Shown: one piece after another, positions 53,301 to 56,300 of the stretch
Numbering within the stretch: position 1 is the stretch's first letter
Layout: each line of letters begins with the position of its first letter
Assembly (NCBI RefSeq): GCF_013167455.1
Contig: NZ_CP038328.1
From: Escherichia coli O157:H7
GTDB taxonomy: Bacteria; Pseudomonadota; Gammaproteobacteria; Enterobacterales; Enterobacteriaceae
Strand: one strand, 5' to 3'
DNA: 64,000 nucleotides
Position numbers: made by a program

Positions 53301-56300
53301 CTTCTGCATCTCCGTCAGGGTTTTCAGTTCACCCAGCGCTGTCTGGTATTTCAGCTTCGCCAGCTCTGTATTCTGCCCCACCAGTGCCAGTTGCTCTTTC
53401 TGCTGCTTCAGCAGCCGGGAAAAACTGTCTTCCGCTTTTTCCGTCTCTGATTTTCCACCCCGGGATTTGGGTTTATTCGCCTCGTTATTGCGCCAGGCTT
53501 CCAGGGCATTACTGATATAACGTTGTCTCGCCTCCTGATACGGATCACCCACAAAACCGAGGTCATCCGCCGCATACCCCAGTCGGACACGCTCTTTTTC
53601 TTCCCCTTTCAGTCTGGACAGGGCCAGCTCACGCTCTGTTTTTGTCAGGGCACTCTGCTGTTTATCATCCAGGGTGGCCTGCGGCAGCCGTAACGGTACA
53701 TTCACCAGTCCCTGACGCTGCTGAAGCAGTTCATTCCCCAGCCCCAGCAGACGGTTGAATTCCGTATGCTGACCGTTCATAACCAGCATGGACTGGTACA
53801 CCTTATTCTGCTCTGCCGCCTGCTGACGAATTAACGCCACACGACGGTCTTCCAGCCCGGCAAGCACATCCTGAATGGACTGCGCTTTTTCCTGCATCTG
53901 TGCCAGACGGGACTGCTCAACGGCAAGCTGCTCTGTTGCCTGAGAAAGCCCTTCCGTTACGGTCTTCACCGATGTCAGATGGTTTATCATGAATCCGTCA
54001 CCGGTCGTCCAGCCCGGGTTCGCCAGAACATACTGATATCCTGCGATTTTTTCCTGCAGGGATTTCACCCGACTGGCCTGTTCATCAATCAGCCGGTTCT
54101 GCTCTGTCAGCGCCGCCCGTGTTCGTCCTTCATTATCTGAGGCTTCAGGCAAAGACATTGACGGCGTTTTATGCGCGATTTCATCTATCGTCAGTGCATA
54201 CTGGCGCGCAGACTCCCTGGCCTGCTCCTGATTCTGGTACAGCGTGTACCATGCTGCAGCCCCCAGCATCACCAGTCCGGGTACGCCACCAACCAGCCCC
54301 AGCGCACCGCTCATCAGACGTGAGCCCACCGCCGTTGTACTGTTCAGCGCATTCTGGGCGGCGCTTCTGGCAGCAATATTTCTGTTCAGGCGTTCCTGTG
54401 TGGCCGCCAGACGGGCCTCTGCAGCAATCTGCATCTCCGTCCCGCGGGCTGCCGCCACGGCCTGCTGAGCACGGTACACGGCTGCCCTTGCCCGCGCCGT
54501 GGCAATCTGCGTTCCCCTGAACTGTGCTTCCGCCAGTGCAACTTCATTACGTGCAGCCGTCACAAGTCCTGCCGTGGCAGACATCGCTCCGGAGGCCATA
54601 TTGCCAAAGTACCGGGCAACCCCGACGGCAACCAGCGCGCCCACGGCTGTTGCCACATTATCAATCTGTCCGGCAACACCGTTCAGCATGCCGGAGAGCG
54701 TTTTTGTCACCCCGCTGGCCTCATTCGCACCGCCCACCCAGGCCATAAAGGCGTTTTCCACCTTTGTGATACTACTGGAAACCGTTTCCGGCATGGCCGC
54801 ATATTCATCACGTAATATCCCCAGCTGGCTGATTAACGCGGGGACCACTTTATCCGCTGTCAGTTTTCCGTCATCCGCCATTGCCTTCAGATCTTTACGG
54901 GCCACGCCCATACCCGCAGCCAGTGCACGTACGATCCGGTCACCACTTTCATTGACCGAATTAAACTCCTCACCACGCAATACACCCTGCGCCAGCGCCT
55001 GACTGAACTGGGTGATCACCGAGCCCGCCTCTGCCGTACTGGCACCGGAGATTTTCAGCCCTGTCGAAATGGCCTCCGTCACCTTCAGCACATCATCAGC
55101 ACTGTAACCATATTCACGCATCGAGGCAGCCGAACGGGCAAACAGGGCCGCATTATCCGAAAATGCGGTGCCTGTCCGCTGGCTGATATCCATCAGCACT
55201 TTCTGTGATGACGCAAATTCATCGGATGACTGTGATGCCTGTTTCAGACGGGCATTCACGGAGCTCCATTCATCCGCCAGCGAAATCAGGTGTCCGGTGG
55301 CAAAGGCACCGGCAAACGCACCGGTCATTCCGACAGCCGAAGCGCGGATTTCCGTCAACTGGCTGTGCAGCTCAGCCAGAGCCCGGCGCTGCTCCCTGGC
55401 TGCCGCAGCAGCCTGACGTCCGCCATTCTGCAGGGTCCGGTAATATTCACTGCCCATACGGGACGCCCGCTGGATCTCCGACTGGAATGACTGTGAATTT
55501 GCCGAAATTTTGATAATCAGTTCACGTAACGTCGCCATTCACCTTTCTCCGGGCGTAAAAAAACCGCCTCAGCGGTTCTCATCATTCATGACTGTGCTGC
55601 AAGGCTCAGCGCGTCTTCCAGCGCCGCAAACGGATCCACCTCCGGCTTATCCTCATCCTCGCCCCAGCAGAGCATGGCGTCCTTCAGTGCAACATTCATC
55701 CCCTGTGCCCCGAAAACCGCTTTCACGATCTGTGCATTACGGATATCCCCGCGCTCATCACCCAGCGGGGATATCCTGTCGAACTCCATCCACATCATCG
55801 CCTCGCTCGCACTCAGGCTGTGGCGCAGTTCGGATAAGGTGCGCCCCAGACGGAGCGCAAGTCGCATCAGAAAGCGAATTTCCGGGCGGGCTACTTTTTT
55901 CTGGCCGACTCTGCATCAGCGATCAGTTCCAGTGCCTGACGCAGCAACCGGGCATGTACCGGACCATAGACGGCCAGCACCTGCTCACGGTCGTCCGGAG
56001 TGAACACCCGCTGCAGGTCCGTATCACACAGGACATCGCAGAACAGCGTCACATCCGCTTCCAGGTTACGGCGGGTTTTCGCCACCACCGACAGGGTATC
56101 GTCATCCTCTCCATCACCATTGAGCACTTCCTGCCACAGATACCAGGCCTCTGCCGAAGGCTCCCGCAGCACCACGCTGACATTACCCCATTCCGGCACC
56201 TTCACCGTTTTATGACGAAACCCTGACAGTCTGGCCAGCGCCAGCGTTTTCAGATCCTTTTTCATGATGACCCATCCCCTTATCCGGCGGCAGCGCTCAC

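Follow-up and report, generated by a model that had tools for sequence, protein, structure and literature searches.

Programmed −1 frameshifting in tail chaperone pairs of the G/GT type is a class reportedly described by Levin in 1993 and by Xu, Hendrix and Duda in 2004. In phage lambda, for which the mechanism and its 30:1 ratio have been reviewed, G and GT are both required for tail assembly and are absent from mature virions (PMC5009743), and modification of tRNA-Lys at U34 tunes the gpG:gpGT ratio (PMC3296357). The HK97 record of gp14 has carried the words 'translated due to a -1 frameshift' since its deposition. In E. coli, A_AAA_AAG is one of the most shift-prone heptamers, and no tetramer does better than A_AAG. 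Sharma et al. 2014 list a cluster named A_AAA_AAG_25 (ECs1801; 53 genes; 124 aa to the motif and 226 aa in the shifted product), which corresponds to GeneTack cluster #10 and which they mark as true, a 'safely inferred' −1 PRF (PMC4066793). In E. coli, shifting amounted to 6% and 7% with two cassettes from the HK97-like cluster of tail assembly chaperones (Antonov et al. 2013; PMC3711429). The G/GT frameshift site in the gene cluster discussed here is already catalogued, as cluster A_AAA_AAG_25 / ECs1801; in the literature we found no experiment on the exact prophage copy described below.

The window analysed is a stretch of 64,000 nucleotides from E. coli O157:H7 (contig NZ_CP038328.1). On its minus strand two small consecutive ORFs, G and the T frame, lie between the major tail and the tape-measure genes, and a slippery heptamer with an open −1 frame into T stands at the end of G, which confirms the observation of the initial annotation. 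We hold it very probable that the heptamer serves an HK97/lambda-like siphovirus prophage as the programmed −1 frameshift site for its pair of tail assembly chaperones. The span first given, 55586-56265, runs exactly from the G start to the T stop; that all coordinates refer to the minus strand had not been stated. The features are as follows:

56280..56996, minus strand: gene for the major tail subunit, which bears an Ig-like domain at its C-terminus (phrog_158; Ig_3, Phage_TTP_11, Phage_tail_2; PGAP); the neighbour expected upstream of G
55891..56265, minus strand: ORF of the G-type tail assembly chaperone, 124 aa plus TAG (ATG at 56265, TAG 55893..55891)
55916..55918, minus strand: TGA at which the −1 frame is closed on the upstream side; the 8-codon shift window lies between it and the TAG
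55900..55894, minus strand: slippery heptamer A_AAA_AAG in X_XXY_YYZ phase, its AAA and AAG being the final two sense codons of G
55891..55893, minus strand: UAG stop of the zero frame, immediately after the heptamer, a possible 'shifty stop' context
55586..55894, minus strand: T extension, 102 codons and a TGA read in the −1 frame; joined to G residues 1-124 it gives a 226-aa GT
55865..55867, minus strand: ATG, the pipeline start of a 93-aa 'tail assembly protein T' (PGAP CDS)
52296..55538, minus strand: gene of a 1080-aa tape-measure protein (PF06120, PF20155, PF09718; phrog_339), the presumed client of G/GT and the neighbour expected downstream

The zero-frame codons at the end of G read AGA/AAA/AAG/TAG, with no codon between the heptamer and the stop; the heptamer had been placed two codons before the stop, which is right for its start (AAA, AAG, then TAG). 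The −1 frame is open from 55915 and, as had been claimed, meets no stop immediately after the slippery site: 102 codons follow the shift before the TGA at 55588..55586. Upstream it is closed by the TGA at 55918..55916, so that the two frames overlap by only 8 codons up to the TAG at 55893..55891 (overlap string TGATGCAGAGTCGGCCAGAAAAAAGTAG), and any shift must fall within these 8 codons, where the heptamer lies. AAAAAAG occurs 29 times in the 128,000 strand positions, from which about 0.002 in-phase occurrences are expected in an 8-codon overlap; chance is therefore an unlikely explanation. We also filtered all 640 X_XXY_YYZ heptamers (any phase, both strands of the window) for three features together: a frame open upstream over at least 100 codons, a stop in the zero frame no more than 12 codons on, and a −1 frame open for at least 90 codons. 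Two passed: the G/T site, and a heptamer inside a gene broken by a 1-nt deletion.

The domain content of the locus is that of the HK97 pair. G matches PF06222 (Phage_TAC_1) with 206.7 bits (cut-off 25; E 1e-61) over model positions 1-124 of 124, as well as phrog_344 (tail assembly chaperone) and, in the structural database, HK97 tail assembly chaperone PDB 2OB9 (E 4.6e-46). The T extension matches PF06223 (Phage_tail_T) with 69.9 bits (cut-off 25.9; E 2.5e-19) over model positions 1-70 of 73, and PHROG 14766 is a 224-position profile spanning both halves. The neighbouring major tail gene matches the major tail protein phrog_158 with E 7e-117. HK97 gp13/gp14 carry the same two Pfam domains at the same place between major tail and tape-measure genes, and their −1 shift likewise occurs where G ends, on an ...A_AAG codon; their fused protein is 60% identical to the window GT over its full length. 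They differ in having G_GAA_AAG, an imperfect X_XXY_YYZ motif five sense codons before the stop, where the window has a perfect A_AAA_AAG with the stop adjacent, and in having a moron, gp15, after gp14 and ahead of the tape-measure gene, where the window has a hairpin and U-run only. This CCGC/GCGG hairpin followed by U7 is visible by eye; the terminator scan gave no consensus match between T and the tape-measure gene.

Phage lambda shares with the window the gene order (V-G-T-H), the −1 shift onto ..A_AAG by tRNA-Lys and, presumably, the function of G/GT (PMC5009743). Its T belongs to the same Pfam family (PF06223, 54.1 bits), a kinship seen through the profile only, as BLASTP gave no alignment between the window T part and lambda T. 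Its site, in contrast to that of the window, is G_GGA_AAG and lies five codons before the G stop. The designation of the two ORFs as a G/GT pair thus holds for role and position, but not for family: lambda G matches PF06894 (Phage_TAC_2) only, a model for which the window G has no match at E<=0.01 in the Pfam profile search, and 'G-like' here means a protein of the HK97 gp13 family PF06222 with the role and position of lambda G. Sakai prophage Sp9 (ECs1801/ECs1802; products of 124 and 226 aa) has G-T DNA near-identical to the window, and its heptamer, TAG and frameshift site as such are identical; it is nevertheless a different prophage copy, with a different sequence just upstream of the G start and a tape-measure gene of 3081 nt versus 3243 nt in the window.

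Conservation of the site extends far beyond these near-identical copies. When five relatives (down to ~50% identity) are aligned over 815 columns with 73% mean column identity, the longest run without any change is the 11-nt block AAAAAAGTAGC, which contains the heptamer. A_AAA_AAG stands directly before TAG in 77 of 79 IMG/VR loci, a set made up mostly of two tight E. coli groups; distant conservation rests on 11 GenBank phage loci. In-phase A_AAA_AAG is found in the window, Sakai Sp9, PhiR49_2, the Morganella and Proteus phages, and three Burkholderia phages, and in PhiR49_2, Morganella IME1369_02 and Proteus Pm34 it adjoins the stop as in the window. The site is G_GGA_AAG in mEp506 and G_GAA_AAG in HK97 and Cronobacter, while Klebsiella Kp4886-3 and locus L061 have GCA_AAG_TAA at the same place. 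Distant relatives (the HK97, Burkholderia and Klebsiella phages) all have a shift site of the A_AAG type in this position, and arrangement and shift site together persist from 99% down to ~41% identity of the fused protein (47% in the most distant enterobacterial phage, ~41-42% in the Burkholderia phages). Gene order, the PF06222/PF06223 pair and the relatives all agree with the conserved arrangement upstream of a tape-measure gene that had been proposed.

The same comparison bears on transcriptional slippage, by which RNA polymerase would add one A within the A-run and the edited mRNA would be read normally. One added A would yield the identical 226-aa protein, as in the DNA-level A7 variant CP043015.1, and relatives of 68% identity have 8 A in a row, which makes slippage more plausible there. 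The run in the window, however, is only 6 long, and ~8-9 or more are generally required for productive transcriptional slippage in E. coli. Review data quoted in Antonov et al. 2013 have its efficiency increasing over run lengths 7 to 11 (PMC3711429). Furthermore, the relatives with G_GGA_AAG, G_GAA_AAG and GCA_AAG keep the same arrangement without a homopolymer run, which points to slippage of tRNA-Lys on A_AAG as the common mechanism. We consider slippage of the polymerase the most improbable of the explanations weighed here.

Scarcely more probable is that T is a separate gene, translated from the ATG at 55867 by termination-reinitiation with the G stop 24 nt upstream, the heptamer being incidental. 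PGAP and most phage records do give a 93-aa CDS from this ATG, which lies in frame 9 codons past the shift site, so that a free 93-aa T is formally possible; the ATG is kept in most relatives within F-L-M, and in the Burkholderia relatives it shares bases with the stop codon of G (TGATG), an arrangement typical of coupling. Against this stands the weak ribosome-binding site of the ATG, whose anti-SD pairing of -3.5 kcal/mol is the weakest among 10 operon starts (the others range from -5.8 to -12.8). Conserved residues also lie upstream of it: nine fused homologs all have Pro128, which precedes Met134, the annotated T start, and the phrog_337 alignment begins at residue 4 of the T extension. 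An incidental sequence, moreover, would not be kept in phase down to ~41% identity; the curated records of HK97 and Bcep176 (gp69/69') join both frames; and the 6-7% shifting cited above was obtained with cassettes of the HK97-like cluster (PMC3711429). The ATG at 55865..55867 is probably an internal Met codon of GT.

The frameshift reading agrees with gene order, domain content, phase and conservation alike, and the G/GT interpretation put forward at the outset is supported. Most ribosomes would read G to its UAG and release the 124-aa chaperone. A minority would slip back by one base on A_AAA_AAG, the tRNA-Lys on AAA and AAG re-pairing with AAA and AAA, and would continue with GUA-GCC... to add 102 residues bearing the Phage_tail_T domain, giving the 226-aa GT. 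By analogy with lambda, the shared G part would bind the tape-measure protein and the T part would recruit the major tail subunit, and a fixed low shift rate would set the G:GT ratio required in tail assembly. From the relatives we infer both these chaperone roles and a shift of a few percent in the window copy.

Such an efficiency would depend on the context of the site, since the bare heptamer without stimulators gave 0.29% shifting in the reporter of Sharma et al. 2014 (PMC4066793) and no conserved stimulator emerged from our search. A search for a downstream stimulatory structure had been suggested as a check, and no such structure is supported: in nine homologs, consensus folding and pair counting found no conserved or covarying structure near the site, including any that would start 4-10 nt after the heptamer. 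A fold downstream of the heptamer computed from the window only is weakly better than shuffles (z -1.8 to -2.4), but across the homologs it is 60% paired, with covariation not above shuffles (74/500). The consensus fold keeps only one short hairpin, GCGCUCC-GUCU-GGGGCGC, ~35 nt downstream of the heptamer. We rejected it as a stimulator: it falls on the codons for the conserved LALRxGR, compensatory changes are absent, and the Burkholderia relatives have the hairpin disrupted. The upstream sequence CTGATCGCTGATGCAGAGTCGGCCAG holds no SD-like element (no GGAG, GAGG or AGGA) of the kind expected 6-17 nt before the heptamer. Sharma et al. 2014 likewise report a ddG per nt of 0.020 for cluster A_AAA_AAG_25, below their threshold of 0.09, and SD = 'N' in their Table S4 (PMC4066793). 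Lambda has no convincing stimulatory structure either (ddG 0.020 in their Table S8, as for A_AAA_AAG_25). The dnaX gene of E. coli presents a stimulated case: it has the same A_AAA_AAG heptamer and tRNA-Lys slippage, combined with an upstream SD-like stimulator, a downstream stem-loop, ~50% shifting and a shorter product (PMC3711429), whereas the window has no SD-like element, no conserved hairpin, an expected shift of a few percent and a longer product.

One candidate for the stimulator in this clade is the zero-frame stop right after ..A_AAG (UAG; UAA in the Klebsiella relatives), acting as a 'shifty stop': the P-site tRNA-Lys would slip while the A site awaits release factor 1. We put this forward tentatively and think it rather unlikely on balance. 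It could account for the 6-7% in the family cassettes against ~0.3% for the bare heptamer. If it were true, the G:GT ratio would be set by termination kinetics and not by RNA structure, and what the family conserves at the core of its signal would be A_AAG together with slow decoding in the A site, the XXY triplet upstream being optional.

Whether the site still serves its own prophage is a different matter. The signal may be an intact relic in a defective prophage, where G/GT no longer feeds virions of this element alone; we regard this as possible, though we lean somewhat against it. Compared with Sakai Sp9, the J-like gene (near 48483) and the portal gene (near 58644) of the window each lack 1 nt; in a genome of 99.8% identity PGAP labels both genes 'frameshifted'; and the G-T segment is present in up to 7 near-identical copies per O157:H7 genome. 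On the other hand, the heptamer and the ORFs of G, T and the tape measure are intact and match those of inducible Stx phages (99.9% identity to YYZ-2008 and 2851); the single-base differences may be assembly errors, and co-resident prophages could complement one another. The window copy may not build its own tails, but a relic would limit only the present use of the programmed frameshift and does not contradict its mechanism.

The initial annotation was also right that annotation pipelines miss the fused product. PGAP calls G as the same 375-nt CDS, and in PGAP/RefSeq, as in most phage records, G and T each have a CDS of their own. The exact 226-aa GT sequence was deposited once in the public collection; we rejected this entry as an annotated frameshift, because its source genome CP043015.1 has A7 instead of A6 in the DNA. 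The G-T segment occurs in ~1,245 of 5,426 complete E. coli genomes, at 2,904 places in all, and the real product behind the RefSeq 93-aa 'tail assembly protein T' is most likely the 226-aa G-T fusion. For the biology of these phages the site brings no new principle, being one more instance of conserved G/GT recoding, and its value lies mainly in annotation: a joined G-T would improve both prophage annotation and the proteomic databases for relatives of the Shiga-toxin phages.

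The -1 frameshift arrangement that the initial annotation assigned to a G/GT tail chaperone pair is present in the window, and its span (55586-56265) runs exactly from the G start to the T stop. On the minus strand the 3' end of G reads GCC-AGA-AAA-AAG-TAG, and the site is made up of the following elements:

56265 (ATG) to 55893..55891 (TAG), minus strand: G ORF of 124 codons (ORF search and translation)
55918..55916, minus strand: TGA closing the -1 frame upstream of the heptamer
55900..55894, minus strand: slippery heptamer AAAAAAG (pattern search)

The heptamer begins on the final base of the AGA codon and is therefore read in the phase A_AAA_AAG. 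Its other six bases form AAA and AAG, with which the sense codons of G end, as claimed, and the stop directly adjoins. The -1 frame is indeed open after the slippery site, continuing for 102 codons up to a TGA at 55588..55586, and the predicted product of a -1 shift at the heptamer is 226 aa long (...AESARKK|VARPEIRFLMRLALRLGRT...).

The identity of both parts fits a tail assembly chaperone. G matches the whole Pfam model PF06222 (Phage_TAC_1; E 1e-61) and PDB 2OB9, the solved HK97 tail assembly chaperone (E 4.6e-46). For the stretch in the -1 frame the hit is PF06223 (Phage_tail_T; E 2.5e-19), and PHROG 14766, a profile of 224 positions, spans G and T as a single protein. G is preceded by a major tail subunit whose C-terminus is Ig-like, and T is followed by a tape-measure protein of 1080 aa, so that the proposed T-like ORF with a tape-measure gene next to it holds. 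Lambda G belongs to PF06894, unlike the G of the window; PF06223 is common to lambda T and the T part, albeit BLASTP alone gives no alignment between these two. According to a review (PMC5009743), G and GT chaperone the tape-measure protein at a G:GT ratio of 30:1, and T recruits the major tail protein; in lambda the ratio depends on the U34 modification of tRNA-Lys (PMC3296357).

The G/GT frameshift has already been described for the same gene cluster and is not novel. Sharma et al. 2014 (PMC4066793) list a prophage cluster A_AAA_AAG_25 (type ECs1801; 53 genes) with 124 aa up to the motif and a shifted product of 226 aa, map it to GeneTack cluster #10, and give it the mark [true], used where frameshifting "can be safely inferred". 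The Sakai Sp9 prophage genes ECs_1801/1802 are near-identical to the window at the G/T locus. Chance is a poor explanation of the heptamer: AAAAAAG occurs 29 times in 128,000 strand positions, from which about 0.002 in-phase copies are expected within the 8-codon overlap where the shift must occur. The window holds 640 X_XXY_YYZ heptamers across all phases; in our scan of them, only two combined a long upstream open frame, a zero-frame stop at most 12 codons away, and a -1 frame open for 90 codons or more: the G/T site, and one within a gene split by a 1-nt deletion.

Full-length two-frame matches to the fused protein were found in 232 phage records.

Shift sites in relatives (identity relative to the fused protein of the window)
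Sakai Sp9: nearly identical; A_AAA_AAG
PhiR49_2, Morganella, Proteus and two more Burkholderia phages: 66% down to 41%; A_AAA_AAG
HK97 gp13/gp14: 60% (tblastn); G_GAA_AAG; record note "translated due to a -1 frameshift"
Klebsiella phage Kp4886-3: about 56%; GCA_AAG_TAA, about 790..830 of locus L008
Cronobacter ENT39118: 50%; G_GAA_AAG
mEp506: 47%; G_GGA_AAG
Bcep176 gp69/69': about 42%; A_AAA_AAG; record joins the frames

What these sites share is tRNA-Lys slipping by -1 from AAG to AAA, and the window carries the best-case, tandem-slip form of this element. In Kp4886-3, and likewise in locus L061, GCA_AAG_TAA offers just an A_AAG tetramer plus stop, with an overlap of two codons. Such imperfect sites, G_GAA_AAG included, suggest from sequence comparison that the core signal of the family may be a single tRNA-Lys slippage adjoining or near the stop. 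Fusion through transcriptional slippage is unlikely, as the run comprises just six A and this mechanism gives no account of relatives without an A-run. An initiation of T independent of G is likewise disfavoured. Among ten operon starts compared, anti-SD pairing is weakest at the annotated T ATG; conservation spans the G/T junction when nine fused proteins are aligned, with Pro128 invariant upstream of the annotated Met134; and the shift site itself is conserved, A_AAA_AAG standing immediately 5' of TAG in 77 of 79 IMG/VR loci (single-base indels in the other two). The longest invariant run of a five-sequence alignment (73% mean column identity) is AAAAAAGTAGC. Taken together, a textbook G/GT -1 frameshift is supported.

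The search for a downstream stimulatory structure, suggested by the initial annotation, gave nothing convincing from folds, homolog consensus or covariation. Folds of the window alone outdid shuffles by only a modest margin (z -1.8 to -2.4); the minimum-energy structure was 60% paired across homologs, with no covariation in excess of shuffles. The consensus fold of nine homologs kept only one short hairpin:

55841..55858, minus strand: GC-rich hairpin GCGCUCC-GUCU-GGGGCGC, about 35 nt 3' of the heptamer

This hairpin coincides with conserved LALRxGR codons and, in that consensus fold, has no compensatory changes; given also its excessive distance, it was rejected as a classical stimulator. A 10-nt invariant block, TGGGGCGCAC, takes in the hairpin, synonymous positions included, and nucleotide conservation here goes beyond what the LALRxGR codons require. 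Sharma et al. likewise saw no stimulator for A_AAA_AAG_25, with a ddG per nt of 0.020, under their threshold of 0.09, and no SD; lambda has the same value, 0.020 (PMC4066793). The bare heptamer shifted 0.29% in their reporter (PMC4066793), whereas Antonov et al. 2013 (PMC3711429) measured 6% and 7% for two cassettes from the HK97-like tail assembly chaperone cluster. We infer a candidate stimulator in the stop codon directly 3' of the heptamer, a "shifty stop" (Weiss et al. 1987, as cited in PMC5009743).

Elsewhere in the window the following features were recorded:

41362..42687, plus strand: 441-aa ORF beyond the tail fibre genes
46117..49589, minus strand: J-like tail tip (host specificity) gene, break near 48483 versus Sakai Sp9 ECs_1806
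55557..55580, minus strand: hairpin CCGC-UGAG-GCGG then U7, in the 47-nt gap from T stop to tape-measure start
58612..61113, minus strand: portal gene, indel near 58644 versus the Sp9 portal

A 1-nt deletion splits the J-like gene into ORFs of 391 and 806 aa, and another replaces and shortens the portal C-terminus (833 aa versus 859 aa in Sp9). PGAP flags both genes as frameshifted in a 99.8% identical genome, the portal in both ECP19-598 copies. Because of these deletions and flags this prophage copy may be defective and its G/T signal a relic, which would restrict present use of the signal and leave its nature unchanged. The J break has an in-phase G_GGT_TTC (48441..48435) inside a 41-codon overlap, the downstream part being in the -1 frame; from a rough estimate of chance occurrence, about 0.16, it is probably fortuitous. 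The portal also carries a tandem repeat (58994..59586; 3.7 copies of a 162-nt unit, 97% identity) encoding 54-aa protein repeats. The hairpin at 55557..55580 looks like a weak intrinsic terminator (-11.9 kcal/mol, z -1.4), although a consensus terminator scan made no call there; its counterparts are CCUGC/GCAGG in Sakai Sp9 and CCGC/GCGG in PhiR49_2, and in HK97 this place is taken by a moron and annotated terminators. The 441-aa ORF agrees with the effector gene nleA (ECs_1812, Sakai Sp9) in length, relative position and orientation.

E. coli O157:H7 chromosomes match the G-T segment with 100% identity. Of 5,426 complete E. coli genomes, 1,245 contain it, in as many as seven places per genome, and the Stx-phage relatives YYZ-2008 and 2851 (genus Pankowvirus) match it at 99.9%. 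In one of the complete E. coli genomes (CP043015.1; 1865..1875 of locus L096) the slip site has A7 instead of A6, joining G and T at the DNA level into a 226-aa ORF; in an IMG/VR contig of the A8 group (L076, about 1061) an A7 breaks the G/T arrangement. Either true mutation or sequencing error may account for these homopolymer indels. RefSeq/PGAP, like most phage records, splits the pair into two genes, G and a 93-aa "T", and the remark that pipelines usually miss the fused product is therefore correct. The sole practical consequence is that standard annotation lacks the fused CDS.
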